Of a stretch of DNA of 43,803 nt, positions 97 through 38,167 are shown in pieces (positions within the stretch are counted from its first letter, which is position 1; the number at the start of each line of letters is the position of its first letter). The DNA is taken from the NCBI GenBank assembly GCA_018167155.1, contig GCA_018167155.1_4332.1; one strand, given 5' to 3'. The notes under the pieces are model-generated. The model did not search any database, was not told the origin of the DNA, and worked only from the letters and a program-made list of their open reading frames with translations. A program made the translations under genes and the position numbers. The DNA is from a phage.

Positions 97-585
97 TCAA
101 CCTTTCACCGCGCGCCCGATAGCCTCTGCCTCTTGCCACGGTTTACCGTCAAACAGCGCCAGGCGACCGGCGGTACGGCGACGCAGGCCGAGGAGCGGTT
201 TGCCGTTCTGGTTGATGAACAGCGCCAGCTTAGCCCGCAGCGTCGCGATATCCCCGGAACGCAGCGCCTTACCCGTGCCAGTAGTAGCGGCAATCACACC
301 AGCACCCGCGTTATAGACCAGGTCGCACACAGCATCGAAATGTGCCTGTGTCAGTGAATGGTGTGCTGCCGCATCAACCGCGGCAACGGCCTTAGCCATA
401 TCGCGATTCAGTAACAGGAGGCCTTGCCCGGGAGTGATTGTCTTACCTGGTGTTACGTCTGGGCCATAGTGTCCGTAACCAATAGTCAGGTACTTCTCGT
501 TTGGTGTAGCACGATACGCAGTTCCGCGGAACCCCTCAAACGCGGCGGTAAAATGCAACCCGTTATCTGAAATGTTTCGAGACAC
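97..585 (-). CDS. Endolysin, glycoside hydrolase family 24 (T4-type lysozyme)
   Basis: ORF track 97..636 contains the motif FEGFRGTAYR...YLTIGYGHYG typical of phage lysozymes with catalytic Glu. Track start is TTG at 636; a GTG at about 585 preceded by GGAGGA is the more likely start. Confidence 0.85.
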   Translation of the reverse strand: MSRNISDNGLHFTAAFEGFRGTAYRATPNEKYLTIGYGHYGPDVTPGKTITPGQGLLLLNRDMAKAVAAVDAAAHHSLTQAHFDAVCDLVYNAGAGVIAATTGTGKALRSGDIATLRAKLALFINQNGKPLLGLRRRTAGRLALFDGKPWQEAEAIGRAVKG

Positions 586-835
586 GCTTATGTCCTCCGT
601 ATGACAGCCACGCCTGACGAATCTGACGCAGCGCAACTAATGTGATTAATGTCTCAGGCAGCGTCGGCGACATGCTGCCCTGTAACAGGTGGATACATCC
701 GGCGGCGCAGACGATAGCAGTCAGGATATAGAGCACCCGACCAAATAGCCCGTCGTCTACGCTGGGATGGTATACGTTAAACAGCGATGTGCCCCCGATT
801 GCCAGCATACCACCGAACCAGAATAACTCATTCAT
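563..835 (-). CDS. Holin-like small membrane protein
   Basis: ORF track 563..874; ATG start at 835 (MNELFWFGGMLAIGG...). About 90 aa, two hydrophobic helices and a charged C-terminus, directly upstream of and overlapping the lysozyme gene. Confidence 0.65.
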   Translation of the reverse strand: MNELFWFGGMLAIGGTSLFNVYHPSVDDGLFGRVLYILTAIVCAAGCIHLLQGSMSPTLPETLITLVALRQIRQAWLSYGGHKRVSKHFR

Positions 836-1136
836 CCGGGCCTCCTCGACGTGCGATGTATTCTCCGGCGACAATACCGGAGAGACGGGAATAGATAGGC
901 ATCCAGAGAATAGCGATTATGAAGCCCAGGCCTGCGATTTCACGGTCGCCCGTGATACCGAACCATTGAGCCGCGAGAGGTGCGCCAAATACGGCGCAAG
1001 TGAAGCCAGTTGCAATAAAGCAGAAGCCGTCTATGGGGCCAGAAATAACGGACTTATGTTGTCGTAGTCCGATTACCCCACCGGCTAGTGCGGCAGTGAG
1101 AAGCCAGCCTGTCACTGTTTCAGTAAATTTATCCAA
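828..1136 (-). CDS. Holin or antiholin-like membrane protein
   Basis: 102 aa with multiple hydrophobic segments, TTG start preceded by GGAGGA, overlaps the next holin gene by 8 nt. Confidence 0.55.
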   Translation of the reverse strand: MDKFTETVTGWLLTAALAGGVIGLRQHKSVISGPIDGFCFIATGFTCAVFGAPLAAQWFGITGDREIAGLGFIIAILWMPIYSRLSGIVAGEYIARRGGPDE

Positions 1137-1211: not shown

Positions 1212-1505
1212 TTATTTGTGTCTCCAGATGTATTGTCGTCTCTGCGGTTTCGTCGGAATATCTTCATAACCCAGCGATTTCCAGTAATTAAATAGCCGAT
1301 TAGCAATAGCCGCGCGCTCCTGTGTCTTAAACTCACCGAGATTCACGGCCTTCCCGTTCTGGAATCCACAGGCGCGGACAGCTTTGCGTCTGGCCTGAAT
1401 CTCGGGGTACATCGCGTTACGGCGGCGCTTGTATATCTGTGTTTTAGCTCTCGGTGACAGCGGCGCAAGGCCGCTTCGTTTCAGGATGTCAGTTGCGAGG
1501 CTCAT
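1212..1505 (-). CDS. Hypothetical basic protein
   Basis: ORF track 1212..1529; internal ATG at 1505 overlaps the upstream stop as ATGA (translational coupling). Confidence 0.5.
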   Translation of the reverse strand: MSLATDILKRSGLAPLSPRAKTQIYKRRRNAMYPEIQARRKAVRACGFQNGKAVNLGEFKTQERAAIANRLFNYWKSLGYEDIPTKPQRRQYIWRHK

Positions 1506-1882
1506 GCTATGGCCCCACATTTCGAGCATGTCTGGAAGTCGTCCACATCATGCATAACCCACTCATGCTTGCATTCCTGCGCGTCTTCTTTACGACATCC
1601 GGATTGCCCCATAGCGTCTCCAACCCCTTCCACATGTGTAACGGACCCACAGTTCGCGCACTCGACGTAATCCGGGAACTGGTCTTTGTATTTCTGTAAC
1701 TCGGCTTCCGCTTTTTCGGCACGTGTCAAAAAGCTGAAAGCGTCATTGAGTATCTGCACACGCCGCGCCACGAGTTCCTTGAACTTACGCTCAAGTTCCT
1801 CGTAGTCTTCGTATCTTACGTATTCGCCGTCAGCATCCGCTACACAAAAACCGTTGTTAGAGTATCTCTGAACCATAATCAT
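1502..1882 (-). CDS. Cys-rich hypothetical protein, paralog A (coiled-coil N-term, QSGCRKEDxQECxHxW motif)
   Basis: 126 aa ORF; shares the motif QSGCRKED(A/T)QEC(K/E)H(E/S)W and a C-terminal CxxCG with the protein at 2079..2585. Confidence 0.55.
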   Translation of the reverse strand: MIMVQRYSNNGFCVADADGEYVRYEDYEELERKFKELVARRVQILNDAFSFLTRAEKAEAELQKYKDQFPDYVECANCGSVTHVEGVGDAMGQSGCRKEDAQECKHEWVMHDVDDFQTCSKCGAIA

Positions 1883-2082
1883 TTCTCCTGTTTACCAAGT
1901 CGCTTAGGTGAGCAGATAGTGCGTACCTCTGAATCGATGGGCTTGTCGCCCTGAAACAGGAAGTGCGCGTTCTCTGCGGCGCGTGCCGCTGACTGGCACG
2001 CCTCCATCGAGTAAAACGTTTCTGACGCCGCTAGTTGCATCTGGCCTGCGGATAGTACCCAGATAAAAAGGATGCTGGTCAT
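1879..2082 (-). CDS. Hypothetical small protein with hydrophobic N-terminus
   Basis: 67 aa ORF tiled between the two paralogs with 4-nt overlaps on both sides. Confidence 0.45.
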   Translation of the reverse strand: MTSILFIWVLSAGQMQLAASETFYSMEACQSAARAAENAHFLFQGDKPIDSEVRTICSPKRLGKQEK

Positions 2083-2585
2083 TCAACTCTCCCGCACGCA
2101 CGACACACAACATAATCCTCGTCAGACAACACCCAATCGTGCTCGCATTCCTGAGTATCGTTTTTCGGTTTATATTCCTTGTCGTCCCACTCACGTTTAC
2201 AACATTTAGAGCAAAGCTCACTACCAGGAACGTTGTTCGGATTGCCTTCGCTGAGAAACAACCCAGGCATAATAATCCAAGAGTGCTCGCATTCCTGAGT
2301 ATCTTCCTTACGGCAACCGGATTGCTCAGGCCCGTGCCCACCTACTACGTAGCTCTCCCCTTTAGGTAAAGGACCGCCCCGCCCTGTTACGCGGCCAAAG
2401 TCTTCATTCATCAACTTTATTGTCTCCTGCAACTCAGCCACCAGTGCCGAAGCATCACGTAACTGGTTCTTAAGTGACAGCACCTCATGGGCCAGGTCTT
2501 CGCACTGTTGCTTGTATGGGTTGTTACTTACCTGCTGCCGTAGCTGGTCAATCAGGTATTCGAATACTTCGTTTTTGTTACTCAT
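2079..2585 (-). CDS. Cys-rich hypothetical protein, paralog B (two copies of the QEC-H-W module)
   Basis: 168 aa; N-terminal coiled coil, then SGCRKEDTQECEHSW and DTQECEHDW repeats and a C-terminal CRACG. First gene after the leftward promoter at about 2616-2644. Confidence 0.55.
   Translation of the reverse strand: MSNKNEVFEYLIDQLRQQVSNNPYKQQCEDLAHEVLSLKNQLRDASALVAELQETIKLMNEDFGRVTGRGGPLPKGESYVVGGHGPEQSGCRKEDTQECEHSWIIMPGLFLSEGNPNNVPGSELCSKCCKREWDDKEYKPKNDTQECEHDWVLSDEDYVVCRACGRVE
2148..2303. repeat. Two exact 21-bp direct repeats (GTGCTCGCATTCCTGAGTATC) inside paralog B
   Basis: Copies at 2148-2168 and 2283-2303; a related copy sits near 1561-1580 in paralog A. Confidence 0.7.
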
Positions 2586-2615
2586 CTCTGTCTTTCCTCT
2601 CGTTTGTGTAAATGA

Positions 2616-2644
2616 ATAGTAGCCTATTATATCTTAGTGTGCAA
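2616..2644 (-). promoter_or_regulatory. Sigma70-like promoter (minus-strand TTGCAC-N17-TACTAT) with embedded AATAG-N4-CTATT palindrome
   Basis: Plus-strand gtgcaa at 2639-2644 and atagta at 2616-2621 with 17-nt spacing; palindrome AATAGTAGCCTATT at 2615-2628; 30 nt upstream of the start at 2585. Confidence 0.6.
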
Positions 2645-2791
2645 GTAAATTTTATTGGTGTTTGTATTGTTGCATCTCCTGCAATAGTCGCTTTGATTGT
2701 TGCGTTTGGTGAAATAGAACAAAAATGATACGCTGCTGGGTAGCAGCGTAAGTCACTCAGTAAAATCCCAAACTATTGTTACAATATAACA

Positions 2792-3822: not shown

Positions 3823-3856
3823 AACCCTCACTCCTCTGTCTCGTTCCGATAAGTGA

Positions 3857-3885
3857 ATAGTATCCTATTATGTTGGGGTGTGCAA
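3857..3885 (-). promoter_or_regulatory. Sigma70-like promoter (TTGCAC-N17-TACTAT) with AATAG-N4-CTATT palindrome
   Basis: Plus-strand gtgcaa 3880-3885 and atagta 3857-3862; palindrome AATAGTATCCTATT at 3856-3869. Confidence 0.6.
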
Positions 3886-7281: not shown

Positions 7282-7354
7282 TTGATATGTGAATAGTACC
7301 ATATTAATTATTTTATAAAAGCACATTGACATGTGAATAGTTCGCTATTATAGT
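7282..7354. promoter_or_regulatory. Divergent control region with two copies of the AATAG-N4-CTATT operator-like palindrome
   Basis: Copy 1 AATAGTACCATATT at 7292-7305; copy 2 AATAGTTCGCTATT at 7336-7349 inside TTGACA(7326-7331)-N17-TATAGT(7349-7354), which drives the + gene at 7386. A minus-strand TACTAT over copy 1 may serve the XRE gene. Confidence 0.55.
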
Positions 7355-10170: not shown

Positions 10171-10199
10171 TTGACACCTGAATAGCGAACTATTATAGT
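10171..10199 (+). promoter_or_regulatory. Sigma70-like promoter TTGACA-N17-TATAGT with AATAG-N4-CTATT palindrome in the spacer
   Basis: TTGACA 10171-10176, TATAGT 10194-10199, palindrome AATAGCGAACTATT at 10181-10194. Confidence 0.6.
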
Positions 10200-27338: not shown

Positions 27339-27367
27339 TTGCACACCCCAATATAATAGGGTACTAT
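27339..27367 (+). promoter_or_regulatory. Sigma70-like promoter TTGCAC-N17-TACTAT with AATAG-N4-CTATT palindrome
   Basis: TTGCAC 27339-27344, TACTAT 27362-27367, palindrome AATAGGGTACTATT at about 27355-27368. Confidence 0.6.
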
Positions 27368-27396
27368 TCACTTACACCAACAATGAGGGGTTTAAA

Positions 27397-27626: not shown

Positions 27627-28757
27627 ATGGCCCGTAAGAAAATAACCGACGAACAGTTACAGGAAGAATTGAACGCCGGAATGAAGAATATCGATATAGC
27701 CCGTAAATACGGCATCTCAGACCGCGTTATTCGTATCCGTAAAGCGAAGCTGGCAAAGAAAGGCGTAGGCCACGGCCGCGACGTCAGCCACCTTGTACCG
27801 GACGGCTACAAGATTAAAGGCACGTCGTCACTGGTGGACGAGTTCGGCAACACTAAGCTGCAATGGGTTAAAACCGACACTGACGCCGAACGTCAGGTCG
27901 AGTTGATGAAAGCCGTAATCGAAGGCATGAAGTCAGAGATTACGCCGGTTGCGCCTGTTAAAGCTGCACGCGTCAAACGCGACGATAAACTACTCAATCT
28001 TTACACTGTATCTGATTTCCATCTCGGTATGCTGGCCTGGGCCGACGAGAGCGGCGACGACTGGGATATGAAAATCGCGGAAGACCTGTTCTCTCGTTGG
28101 TTCGACGCGGCGTTTCAGAAAGCGCCAGATGCAGGAACAGGGGTTATTAACCTGCTGGGCGACTTCGCGCACTTCGATAGTCTGGATGCCGTTACCCCCG
28201 AGTCGCGTCATGTGTTGGACGCAGACACTCGCTACCAGAAACTGGTGCGCTACATGATTCGTATGGTGCGCCGTGTTGTTGATATGGCGCTGGTTAAGCA
28301 TAAAAATGTCCGCTTGCTCATCGTGCAAGGGAACCACGACGAGAGCGGAATGATTTGGTTGGCTGAGATGTTTAGCACTCTGTACGACAACGAGCCGCGT
28401 GTGTTCGTCGATACGTCGCCGGATGTGTACAAGATGGTGCAACACGGCAAAACGACATTGTTCTTTACCCACGGACATAAAGCGCGCTTCGACGCTATCG
28501 AACCGGTTATGATTGCCAAGTTCCGCAAAGCGTTTGGTGAGAGCGTTTACAGCTACGCCCACGTAGGACACCTACACCATCAGAAGATTGTAGAAAGCCG
28601 TAATATGATTGTTGAGCAACACCGCACCTTAGCGGCTAAAGACGCCTACGCCTCCCGCGGCGGATGGATGTCAAGCCGCAGTGCAAACGTAATTACTTAT
28701 AGCGCCGAATATGGCGAGGTTGCACGTTTAACTATTTCACCGGAGATGCTGGGATGA
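27627..28757 (+). CDS. Calcineurin-like metallophosphoesterase with N-terminal HTH-like domain
   Basis: 376 aa; ordered motifs SDFHLG (DxH), GDFAHFD (GD), QGNHDE (GNH[DE]), THGH, GHLHH (GHxH); N-terminal KNIDIARKYGISDRVIRIRK looks like an HTH. Confidence 0.65.
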   Translation: MARKKITDEQLQEELNAGMKNIDIARKYGISDRVIRIRKAKLAKKGVGHGRDVSHLVPDGYKIKGTSSLVDEFGNTKLQWVKTDTDAERQVELMKAVIEGMKSEITPVAPVKAARVKRDDKLLNLYTVSDFHLGMLAWADESGDDWDMKIAEDLFSRWFDAAFQKAPDAGTGVINLLGDFAHFDSLDAVTPESRHVLDADTRYQKLVRYMIRMVRRVVDMALVKHKNVRLLIVQGNHDESGMIWLAEMFSTLYDNEPRVFVDTSPDVYKMVQHGKTTLFFTHGHKARFDAIEPVMIAKFRKAFGESVYSYAHVGHLHHQKIVESRNMIVEQHRTLAAKDAYASRGGWMSSRSANVITYSAEYGEVARLTISPEMLG

Positions 28758-28984
28758 CTTCAAAATACAACCGAACAATGACAAACACTCACGGCAGCAC
28801 TATGACCGTAGACGTTTACGATGTTCTCCGTGCATTCGACATCCGTGACCCCGCACTACAGCACGCATTGAAGAAACTATTGTGTATGGGTCTTCGCGGG
28901 CACAAGGACACCGGAACCGACTTAGCGGAAGCAATTGAAAGTCTGGAGAAGTTACGAGAGTACCGTAGTAATATAGATGAGTAA
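28754..28984 (+). CDS. Hypothetical protein
   Basis: 76 aa, ATGA-coupled to the phosphoesterase gene. Confidence 0.45.
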   Translation: MTSKYNRTMTNTHGSTMTVDVYDVLRAFDIRDPALQHALKKLLCMGLRGHKDTGTDLAEAIESLEKLREYRSNIDE

Positions 28985-36235: not shown

Positions 36236-36264
36236 TTGCAGACACCAGTATAATAGGGTACTAT
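36236..36264 (+). promoter_or_regulatory. Sigma70-like promoter TTGCAG-N17-TACTAT with AATAG-N4-CTATT palindrome
   Basis: TTGCAG 36236-36241, TACTAT 36259-36264, palindrome AATAGGGTACTATT. Confidence 0.6.
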
Positions 36265-36298
36265 TCAGTTATCGAAGCGAGAGATAAGGGGCTTAAAG

Positions 36299-36535
36299 AT
36301 GAAAGAATTAATTATCGCGGTATTGACGACACTGGCAGTTTCGCTGGCAGTTTCGCTGGCAGTTTCACTGGTAATTGCTGCTGGTGTACGTAGCCTAGAT
36401 AAACACGAGTGTGAGAACTACGGAGATGTCACAGGCAGAGAGGTAATGTATAGTTACACAACTTGTTATGTGAAAACTGATAGAGGTTTTATCCCTCGTG
36501 GAGAACTTAATTTTAGAGCAGCGACACATGAATAA
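36299..36535 (+). CDS. Small membrane-anchored protein with tandem AVSL repeats
   Basis: 78 aa; N-terminal hydrophobic LIIAVLTTLAVSLAVSLAVSLVIAAGV encoded by three tandem 12-bp repeats, then a 50-aa Cys-containing domain; own promoter and terminator. Confidence 0.6.
   Translation: MKELIIAVLTTLAVSLAVSLAVSLVIAAGVRSLDKHECENYGDVTGREVMYSYTTCYVKTDRGFIPRGELNFRAATHE
36334..36369 (+). repeat. Three tandem 12-bp repeats (GGCAGTTTCGCT-like) inside the CDS
   Basis: Directly visible: ctggcagtttcgctggcagtttcgctggcagtttcactgg. Confidence 0.7.
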
Positions 36536-38112: not shown

Positions 38113-38141
38113 TTGCAGACACCAATATAATAGGGTACTAT
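38113..38141 (+). promoter_or_regulatory. Sigma70-like promoter TTGCAG-N17-TACTAT with AATAG-N4-CTATT palindrome
   Basis: TTGCAG 38113-38118, TACTAT 38136-38141; the promoter-to-SD sequence is nearly identical to the 36236 promoter. Confidence 0.6.
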
Positions 38142-38167
38142 TCAGTTAACTTAAACAGGAGATGAAA

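Follow-up and report, generated by a model that had tools for sequence, protein, structure and literature searches.

Several described systems lie close to the proteins that are the subject of this report. The gp5.9 protein of bacteriophage T7 is a small, acidic, dimeric coiled coil of about 52 residues with a pI of about 4.0 that inhibits RecBCD (PMC9836394), and it also inhibits MukBEF (PMC7617805). It is a parallel coiled-coil DNA mimic (PDB 8B1R, PF25708). Zinc ribbons such as those of PF08792, PF03604, and DUF5817 are units of 25-45 residues in which a β-hairpin lies between two knuckles, each providing two ligands, the first of the form CxxC and the second CxxCG. The Topo_C_ZnRpt repeats of the type IA topoisomerases form small zinc-ribbon arrays whose copy number varies between lineages (PMC9369019). 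They are basic C4 units, carried on an enzyme, that bind single-stranded DNA. In the zinc hook of Rad50/SbcC, an antiparallel coiled coil bears at its apex a CxxC motif, and the zinc is shared by two chains. Described here is a computational analysis of two genes, designated A and B, whose products show points of likeness to these systems. They are located in a 43,803-nucleotide stretch of phage DNA (GenBank assembly GCA_018167155.1, contig GCA_018167155.1_4332.1), hereafter referred to as the window.

By DNA comparison with phages of Escherichia coli and Salmonella, the window corresponds to a Kagunavirus-like siphophage of the Guernseyvirinae. Both proteins carry copies of a short Cys-His-Cys-Cys unit behind a long N-terminal helix. 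As such, the A/B family is a variation on the zinc-ribbon theme, with a C-H-C-C mini-module, an invariant tryptophan, and a tandem, swapping array, and it is not categorically new. Relative to the zinc-ribbon group, the phage units differ in having C-x-H as the first knuckle, an invariant tryptophan two residues later, and exchangeable cassettes that stand in tandem behind a probable coiled-coil stalk. Whereas the topoisomerase repeats are C4 units, those of the phage are acidic, have C-H-C-C ligands and hypervariable hairpins, are attached only to helices, accompany no enzyme domain, and have no match in Pfam. The A family ends its helix in a lone invariant CxxC(+His), a feature in which it resembles the zinc hook.

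Overall architecture of the A and B proteins

Both open reading frames proposed in a first-pass annotation of the window, 1502..1882 (A) and 2079..2585 (B), are present on the minus strand. The features of the region are collected in Table 1. An additional open reading frame (1904-2341, minus strand, 145 residues) overlaps B in another frame and was treated as spurious.

Table 1 Positions of the features within the window
Feature	Position	Strand	Description
Gene B	2079..2585	-	168 aa, phrog_6094: helix, linker, two C-H-C-C modules
B residues 2-67	2385..2582	-	Long α-helix, probable coiled coil (AF2, family alignment)
B residues 29-58	2412-2501	-	SLKNQL...EL core; conserved, resembles T7 gp5.9 helix
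B residues 87-95	2301..2327	-	Junction motif EQSGCRKED, nearly invariant, precedes first module
B module 1, residues 95-133	2187..2303	-	C99-x-H101-x-W103, conserved 21-residue insert IIMPGLFLSEGNPNNVPGSEL, C125-x-x-C128
B module 2, residues 143-168	2082..2159	-	C147-x-H149-x-W151, VLSDEDYVV (9-residue hairpin), C161-x-x-C164-G
21-bp repeat, copy 1	2139-2159	+ coordinates	GTGCTCGCATTCCTGAGTATC, encodes DTQECEH of module 2
21-bp repeat, copy 2	2283-2303	+ coordinates	GTGCTCGCATTCCTGAGTATC, encodes DTQECEH of module 1
Gene A	1502..1882	-	126 aa (probably 124): phrog_29624-type N-part and one B-type module
A residues 75-83	1634..1660	-	CANCGSVTH, lone CxxC knuckle and His at helix end ("half-module")
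A residues 93-126	1505..1606	-	QSGCRKED junction and module: C104-x-H106-x-W108, VMHDVDDFQT, C119-x-x-C122-G
orf67	1879..2082	-	phrog_3766; hydrophobic N-terminus, two cysteines
orf97	1212..1505	-	phrog_9632; likely start ATG 1505 overlaps A stop (ATGA)
Lysis cassette	97..1136	-	Holin-like 828-1136 and 563-874; endolysin within 97-636; UTEC10/phiSD1 annotation
Intrinsic-terminator-like hairpin	2729..2750	-	9-bp stem, 5 GC pairs, T-rich tail; ends upstream small-gene unit
Class-2 phage promoter (predicted)	2616..2644	-	-35 TTGCAC 2644..2639, 17-nt spacer, -10 TACTAT 2621..2616
Quasi-palindromic motif GAATAGTAgCCTATTAT	2614-2630	+	Overlapped by class-2 promoter
17-nt motif GAATAGTAnCCTATTAT, copies	2614-2630, 3855-3871, 7291-7307, 7335-7351, 10180-10196	+	
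17-nt motif GAATAGTAnCCTATTAT, copies	27353-27369, 36250-36266, 38127-38143	-	

In models calculated with AF2 from family alignments, B consists of helices at residues 2-20 and 23-67 (pLDDT about 80), a disordered linker from residues 70 to 90, and module strands at 103-105, 123-125, 131-133, 151-153, and 159-161, with a mean pLDDT of 65. The A protein is modeled with a helix from residues 24 to 68 (pLDDT above 90), hairpins at 72-83 and 108-119, and strands at 108-111 and 116-119 (mean pLDDT 69). The helix blocks, 2-67 in B and 24-68 in A, fall at pLDDT values of about 65-94, and the block of module 2 in B at about 79.

The two genes had been described as paralogs with a common coiled-coil N-terminus and the common motif QSGCRKEDxQECxHxW. 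The motif is indeed found in both, as QSGCRKEDAQECKHEW in A (residues 93-108) and QSGCRKEDTQECEHSW in B (residues 88-103), and a long N-terminal helix is predicted for each. The helices are not homologous, however: the N-terminal halves belong to different PHROGs, give no BLASTP alignment, and reach an hhalign probability of 6%. The term paralogous therefore fits the C-terminal module only, for which BLASTP of A against B gave E=1e-9 with module 1 and 2e-7 with module 2. The DNA encoding the A module (1505..1606) is 78% identical to positions 2272-2325 of B. B had also been said to contain the whole unit twice; the DTQEC-H-W core and the CxxC are duplicated, the second copy reading DTQECEHDW at residues 143-151, but QSGCRKED occurs only once.

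The phrog_6094 profile matches B along its length (E=1.3e-49). In A, the N-terminal part matches phrog_29624 (E=3.3e-24), and the module corresponds to the C-terminal part of phrog_6094 (E=9.7e-9). By these profile matches A is a chimera of a phrog_29624 N-terminal part and a phrog_6094-like module. PHROGs 6094 and 29624 are sequence clusters with no described fold, motif, or function, and the A protein of the window fuses both. The most likely start of gene A is the second ATG, at 1876 (MVQRY...), because all homologs begin with MVQRY and the Shine-Dalgarno spacing fits, the AGGAG lying 8 nt from this ATG and only 2 nt from the first.

Homologs of B are numerous, with 1336 at E<=1e-3 in a collection of 5.8 billion proteins; they come from phage contigs of roughly 40-46 kb, or fragments, and bear no informative name. 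By tblastn, B is present in 249 genomes of isolate phages, all of the Guernseyvirinae type and 40-46 kb in length, again with uninformative annotation. The lengths of the best 120 homologs range from 118 to 276 residues because the helix has also been duplicated or extended. No protein identical to A was found in the same collection, the best full-length match being 77% identical. Among the best 120 homologs of A, 69 end at ...CANCGSVTHVEGVE without a module and 41 carry one. The CxxC(+His) of CANCGSVTH is invariant in the A family and forms the C-terminus of most homologs. It resembles the second knuckle of a module, as judged by a third BLASTP segment against B and by a B/A recombinant in one related locus (L030) whose junction lies at the CxNCG knuckle. 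A purely speculative thought is that this motif represents half of a metal site, completed between two chains as in the zinc hook.

The Cys-His-Cys-Cys module

The module is characterized by C-x-H-x-W followed, after 8-21 residues, by C-x-x-C-G. In an alignment of 51 sequences of the B family, C99, H101, W103, C125, C128, C147, H149, W151, C161, and C164 are invariant, and the C, H, W, C, and C positions are likewise invariant in an alignment of 27 modules. The junction EQSGCRKED is common to B, A, and other N-terminal contexts. Its cysteine is replaced by arginine in some members of the A family and hence is probably not a ligand. Residue 129 of B (2199-2201, minus strand) is a cysteine (CSKCCKREW), an extra one beside the second knuckle of module 1, at a position occupied by glycine in 90% or more of the family (CSKCGKREW).

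That the Cys/His pattern denotes a small metal-binding fold, as suggested in the first-pass annotation, is well supported at the level of sequence by the invariant ligands, the weak zinc-ribbon matches, and the predicted β-hairpins. Scans of A, B, their neighbors, and distant module proteins against Pfam, NCBIfam, and PADLOC yielded only coiled-coil noise and sub-threshold zinc ribbons. Indeed, the weak Pfam matches that are not coiled coils are all zinc ribbons, namely A2L_zn_ribbon, Zn_ribbon_RPAB4, DUF5817, and COX5B (E 0.02-0.1); A2L_zn_ribbon, Zn_ribbon_RPAB4, Zn_ribbon_3, and DUF5817 score 12.8-15.1 bits, below the Pfam gathering thresholds of 22.9-31. Among the PADLOC models there was no match for B, and for A only a Cas12f fragment (E=0.041). 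The Lar-like restriction alleviation protein (PF14354/phrog_6422) was touched in the knuckle region only, with E=0.51 in Pfam and E=0.1 for phrog_6422. Searches of the PDB with the whole A and B sequences gave nothing significant, and a search with the module profile returned only the CxxCG knuckles of C2H2, GATA, and ribosomal zinc proteins. Several proteins that contain zinc ribbons are among the top Foldseek matches, at non-significant E values of 3-9: Csl4 (exosome core), Trm112, NudC, and the small subunit of RNA polymerase I. The earlier opinion that the proteins belong to no known family thus stands for Pfam, NCBIfam, PADLOC, and the PDB; the uncharacterized PHROGs 6094 and 29624 do contain the genes. 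With both the C-x-H and the C-x-x-C conserved, two knuckles are present as in a zinc ribbon, although the C-x-H spacing is atypical; the small size of the unit and the CxxCG form of its second knuckle also agree with that group. On this evidence the most fitting description of each unit is that of a miniature zinc ribbon whose first knuckle is unusual.

Ligation of something other than zinc by these residues, as in a rubredoxin-like iron site, or their use in disulfides, or a motif that is conserved but fortuitous, appears highly improbable. Rubredoxin-type knuckles are matched weakly by the module profile, and disulfides would be possible in the secreted Firmicutes proteins that contain related HxW...CxxCG repeats. 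Each module, however, contains four invariant ligands with zinc-ribbon-like spacing, a cytoplasmic location disfavors disulfides, and chance is excluded by invariance across hundreds of divergent copies. With respect to location, inspection of the A and B sequences by eye reveals no membrane segment, lipobox, or signal peptide, and the lack of a long hydrophobic stretch is consistent with residence in the cytoplasm.

Duplication and exchange of modules

The first-pass annotation had proposed a survey of module number across related phages. In the best 120 homologs of B, the C-x-H-x-W core is found once in 14, twice in 68, three times in 35, and four times in two; only one has none, such that 119 of the 120 carry between one and four copies. 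The hairpins between the knuckles fall into at least 23 types at 60% identity, seven of which are common to the A and B families. Examples are VLSDEDYVV, EYYYPNGRR, RFVNGKAPAV, QFYGVGFPCM, NRYIVHPHRKI, VMHDVDDFQT, and the 21-residue IIMPGLFLSEGNPNNVPGSEL. Further variants in related loci include tryptophan-to-phenylalanine replacements, C4-type units, inserted β-rich domains, and deletion fusions that lack modules. It is well supported by these alignments that modules are duplicated, swapped, and lost freely among related phages. Cassette and copy-number variation had escaped the first-pass annotation, as had the acidic charge, the wider distribution of C-x-H-x-W...CxxCG, and the gp5.9-like helix discussed below.

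The inserted β-rich domain has the pattern W-x-W-x-GG-x-CPVP...V-x-I/V...DG...DI-x-x-YRVV and stands in place of, or between, modules in some members of the A and B families (P0241, P0278, P0156, P0213, and P0223; loci L023, L032, L033, and L035). It has no match in Pfam. In phiSD1 (L002) and in locus L036, in-frame deletions join the B helix to the C-terminal ~20 residues of the orf67 product, giving fusions of 72 and 115 residues, respectively, without any module.

The exact 21-bp repeat reported for B exists. Its copy at 2283-2303 had been correctly placed, and the other lies at 2139-2159, the previously given 2148-2168 being off by 9 nt. The 21-mer GTGCTCGCATTCCTGAGTATC occurs twice, whereas shuffled sequences did not produce even one match. 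All seven codons of DTQECEH are identical between the two modules of B. In the module pairs within genes of other loci (n=10), identical codons are used at only 19 of 43 positions with identical residues; a general constraint at the DNA level, or concerted evolution, was rejected on this ground. The exact repeat is therefore a local feature and not a family-wide constraint, and the identity of all seven codons looks like the result of a local event, for example a recent duplication or conversion.

Proposed function of the A and B proteins

An invariant scaffold, a hypervariable hairpin, and modules that are duplicated, deleted, and exchanged by recombination together point to exchangeable binding heads. 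In the explanation that we prefer, albeit tentatively, A and B are host-directed accessory proteins whose coiled-coil stalks display zinc-stabilized, exchangeable, protein-binding heads. They would be acidic, cytoplasmic products of a Guernseyvirinae phage built in three parts: a long N-terminal helix that most likely oligomerizes as a parallel coiled coil, a flexible linker with EQSGCRKED at its end, and one (A) or two (B) modules. The C-x-H and C-x-x-C-G knuckles would jointly hold one metal ion, presumably zinc, with the 8-21 residues between them exposed as a β-hairpin, and the modules would be presented multivalently on the stalk. The heads would bind proteins, most likely host factors involved in defense or DNA metabolism, and would be neither enzymes nor sequence-specific DNA binders. 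A conserved stalk with variable heads would be the pattern expected under diversifying pressure from host targets. The architecture and the evolutionary mode of the family are well supported by the alignments; from the same sequences we infer metal binding, oligomerization, a protein-binding role, and a host-directed function.

Several points weigh against this explanation. The confidence of the AF2 models is low to moderate in the modules (block pLDDT 53-79; pTM 0.28 and 0.35), and zinc ribbons do not typically have C-x-H as their first knuckle. Co-transcription with the holins and endolysin is unlike the usual early anti-defense gene. Finally, the hypervariability and the frequent truncation or deletion, as in L002 and L036, could mean that the modules are dispensable.

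The N-terminal helix of B and its possible relationship to gp5.9

Like gp5.9, B is acidic, helical, and encoded by an enterobacterial phage. Residues 29-58 of B align with residues 21-50 of gp5.9 over 30 columns with 47% identity and, using family alignments, an hhalign probability of 94%. A second alignment pairs residues 26-56 with residues 18-48 and contains the same SLKNQL and VAEL. Conserved columns coincide, with L38/K39/N40/L42 of B corresponding to L30/K31/N32/L34 of gp5.9 and E51/L52 to E43/L44. Invariant in the helix across the 51-sequence alignment are V35, S37, L38, K39, L42, E51, and L52. As controls, the A-family helix against gp5.9 gave a probability of 2%, and the B helix against the A family 6%. 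The gp5.9-like phrog_9014 is the non-self PHROG with the most matches, recognizing 13 of 27 helix fragments with E values down to 4.3e-5, and whole B at E=0.01, and a profile search of the PDB with the B helix recovers gp5.9 at E=0.004.

Taken at face value, these matches could mean that B is a DNA mimic of the gp5.9 type that inhibits RecBCD, or MukBEF or an SMC-like defense system, to which the zinc modules add affinity or a second specificity. Versions of about 72 residues that lack modules exist and are close to gp5.9 in size, and to our knowledge no RecBCD inhibitor is annotated in these linear double-stranded DNA phages, which counts in its favor. The profile support from HMMER is, however, no better than that for generic coiled coils, matches to which are numerous for the helices of A and B. 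In the PDB search the Hook3 coiled coil scores above gp5.9, many Pfam coiled-coil families reach 1e-4 with fragments of the B helix, a level similar to that of gp5.9, and PF25708 is missing both from the three families that the fragment of the window itself matched and from the list of the 25 families matched most often. The acidic residues of gp5.9 that contact arginines and lysines of RecB or RecC (D4, D11, D15, E36, D38/E39, and E45; PMC9836394, Table 1) are mostly without counterparts. In the hhalign register E36 falls on D44, the only acidic counterpart, D38/E39 on S46/A47, and E45 on Q53, and the N-terminal contacts are unmatched. The aligned segment has a net charge of about -3 in B as opposed to -7 in gp5.9, and the pI of the B helix region is 4.75. 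At 168 residues B is three times longer than gp5.9, has zinc modules, and lacks a counterpart of its N-terminal β region; it is not a small, exceptionally acidic, standalone dimer. The 72-residue forms, moreover, are in-frame deletion fusions with orf67 and not clean standalone genes. Homology of the B helix to the gp5.9 coil is possible on the strength of the alignment, and if real it would support a parallel dimeric stalk. A gp5.9-like function is unlikely, and B as a DNA mimic of this type must be regarded as improbable.

A more elaborate possibility combines the gp5.9 relationship with the shuffling of modules. The two genes might encode a combinatorial repertoire of miniature zinc-ribbon binder cassettes on dimeric coiled-coil stalks, that of B being derived from a coil of the gp5.9 type, and thereby a multivalent inhibitor that can be retargeted. 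Duplication of cassettes and their swaps between the two genes and between phages may then keep pace with changing defense or DNA-repair proteins of the host, be it RecBCD, SMC-like, or other systems. We consider this unlikely.

The probable transcription unit and the lysis genes

As asserted earlier, the lysis genes lie downstream of A and B. Stop and start codons overlap as ATGA at B/orf67 (2079-2082), orf67/A (1879-1882), and A/orf97 (1502-1505), which suggests translational coupling of these four genes. A terminator-like hairpin and a predicted promoter lie upstream of B, and the terminator scan revealed no minus-strand terminator ahead of the lysis genes. Given these signals and the ATGA overlaps, B, orf67, A, orf97, the holins, and the endolysin look like one transcription unit. 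The orf67 product is small and may reside in the membrane or be secreted.

The shared unit raises the question of a role for A and B in lysis or virion assembly, either as lysis regulators or as fiber- or decoration-like coiled coils with variable knobs. A conserved N-terminus, a stalk, and variable C-terminal heads would be reminiscent of receptor-binding fibers, and there are weak matches to Rz-like spanin coiled coils. These matches (E 8e-4 to 0.03) are generic coiled-coil noise among many others, and no transmembrane segment, lipobox, or signal peptide can be seen in A or B. A spanin or lysis role as the principal explanation was rejected on these two grounds. In addition, the genes lie outside the structural module, the slot is filled in relatives by unrelated small genes and an HslV-like peptidase, and the exposed tips of virions seldom contain Cys/His metal sites of the intracellular type. 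A function in lysis or in the virion is very doubtful.

The 17-nucleotide promoter motif and the question of nucleic acid binding

The promoter that the first-pass annotation placed at 2616-2644 agrees with the sigma-70 consensus at only 7 of 12 positions and is absent from the list produced by a consensus scan. Even so, it belongs to a motif that is conserved in the phage. This 17-nt motif, GAATAGTAnCCTATTAT, contains the inverted repeat AATAG-N4-CTATT and occurs eight times in the window as compared with 0.23 expected. When aligned, the sites fall into two classes. In class 1, the motif lies within strong TTGACA-N17-TATAGT promoters of plus-strand replication genes (7335 and 10180). In class 2, which comprises five sites, the motif is followed by GTGTGCAAG, which on the opposite strand reads TTGCAC-N17-TACTAT. 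All five class-2 sites precede a gene in that orientation, namely B (2585), a gene for 68 residues (3831), an exonuclease (27627), and small open reading frames at 36299 and 38162. Of 37 related viral loci examined, nearly all have the motif upstream of the B homolog and in the same orientation. The same consensus has been reported as a PHIRE-predicted phage promoter in the Kagunavirus fBC-Eco01 (PMC9825357). From its occurrence in two opposite promoter contexts, the motif could be an operator that overlaps the -10 element and is recognized by a dimeric regulator of the phage.

One could envision that the module arrays bind nucleic acid, be it single-stranded DNA, RNA, or a DNA site, in the manner of the topoisomerase repeats or of zinc-ribbon transcription factors, and perhaps regulate this very motif. 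An eight-copy quasi-palindrome calls for a dimeric regulator, the invariant tryptophan beside the metal site could stack on bases, and the tandem zinc ribbons of topoisomerase I, also variable in number, do bind nucleic acid (PMC9369019). A and B are acidic, however, with pI values of 4.70 and 4.80 and net charges of -10 and -12, respectively (family medians 4.5 and 5.3), and the segments that contain modules are each acidic as well (pI 4.5-4.8, net charge -4 to -7). One would expect a conserved operator to have an equally conserved regulator, yet the modules are hypervariable, differ in number, and are sometimes deleted. No DNA-binding family was matched. Being both acidic and hypervariable, the modules look less like parts of a regulator that recognizes specific DNA sequences than like protein binders, and nucleic acid binding by the arrays seems unlikely.

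Wider distribution of the module

A module profile of 32 positions, searched against 1.84 billion cluster representatives, matched 149 of them at E<=1e-3. The GCRK-DTQ-C-H-W junction connects the module to other N-terminal contexts, as in P0302 and P0307, and proteins of this type occur in 39 other records of enterobacterial siphophages. Some small metagenomic proteins (P0257, P0288, P0340, and P0254) consist of two to six units and nothing else. A tblastn search of isolate phages with the multi-module proteins P0257 and P0288 gave no match, and the cluster names are uninformative. None of the matches has a curated family or an informative name, and the unit is thus a repeat that occurs widely but has gone undescribed.

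Firmicutes-type proteins that resemble secreted proteins or lipoproteins (P0247, P0249, P0268, P0273, P0385, and others) reach 4488 residues and contain up to about 16 tandem repeats of the form H-x-W-x-x-A-x-C-x-x-P-x-x-C-x-x-C-G, which are related to the phage module. They belong to no curated family and show only partial C1_1 matches. These repeats differ in having mostly one histidine and three cysteines with different spacing and an extracellular setting. The metagenomic and Firmicutes proteins alike have other N-termini and no coiled-coil stalk. The phage module and the metagenomic and Firmicutes repeats may be either homologous or convergent.

Implications

Hundreds of phages of Salmonella and E. 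coli that are therapeutic candidates carry this family, and its members are annotated as "hypothetical" or, spuriously, as "tolA-binding," "lactocepin," or "cell division protein." The C-x-H-x-W...CxxCG unit is absent from Pfam and NCBIfam, and its definition would annotate many orphan metagenomic sequences. If the modules are zinc-stabilized heads, they would constitute a binder scaffold that is compact, at about 30 residues, has a hypervariable hairpin, and is shuffled in nature. Their targets, once identified, could bring to light a class of proteins, new to host takeover or anti-defense, and could also explain differences in host range among near-identical Kagunavirus and Jerseyvirus phages. 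Were the gp5.9 link true, the only known coiled-coil DNA-mimic family would extend beyond the T7-like phages, and were cassettes indeed swapped to retarget an inhibitor, the system would be a natural, phage-encoded analog of a modular binder library.

The locus in related phages

Phages of the genera Kagunavirus and Jerseyvirus match the region from 1200 to 2800 at 87-93% DNA identity, in mosaic pieces (322 records), and none of the 322 covers 80% or more of the query. By these comparisons the A/B locus is clearly mosaic among relatives and a hotspot of recombination. A literature search for zinc or Cys-rich proteins of Kagunavirus, Jerseyvirus, or Guernseyvirinae phages gave nothing relevant, and a Kagunavirus time-course transcriptome (PMC12645636), whose searched text gives neither a genome accession nor a gene table, could not be mapped to the A and B genes.

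UTEC10 and phiSD1 share the layout of the window, with small hypothetical genes on one strand followed by two holins and an endolysin and, adjoining this array, a divergent replication module. In relatives, the same slot holds unrelated small genes and an HslV-like peptidase. The gene for this HslV-family peptidase (phrog_1040) is located between the gene array and the holins in loci L001 (2062-2502) and L002 (2065-2502) and is not found at the matching position of the window, about 1137-1211.

Elsewhere in the window, a plus-strand island at 27627-28984 interrupts the minus-strand structural module and is preceded by a class-2 promoter. Its first gene encodes an SbcD/Mre11-like exonuclease of 376 residues (phrog_704, E=6e-166), and the second open reading frame, of 76 residues, matches only the C-terminal part of ATPase-like PHROGs.

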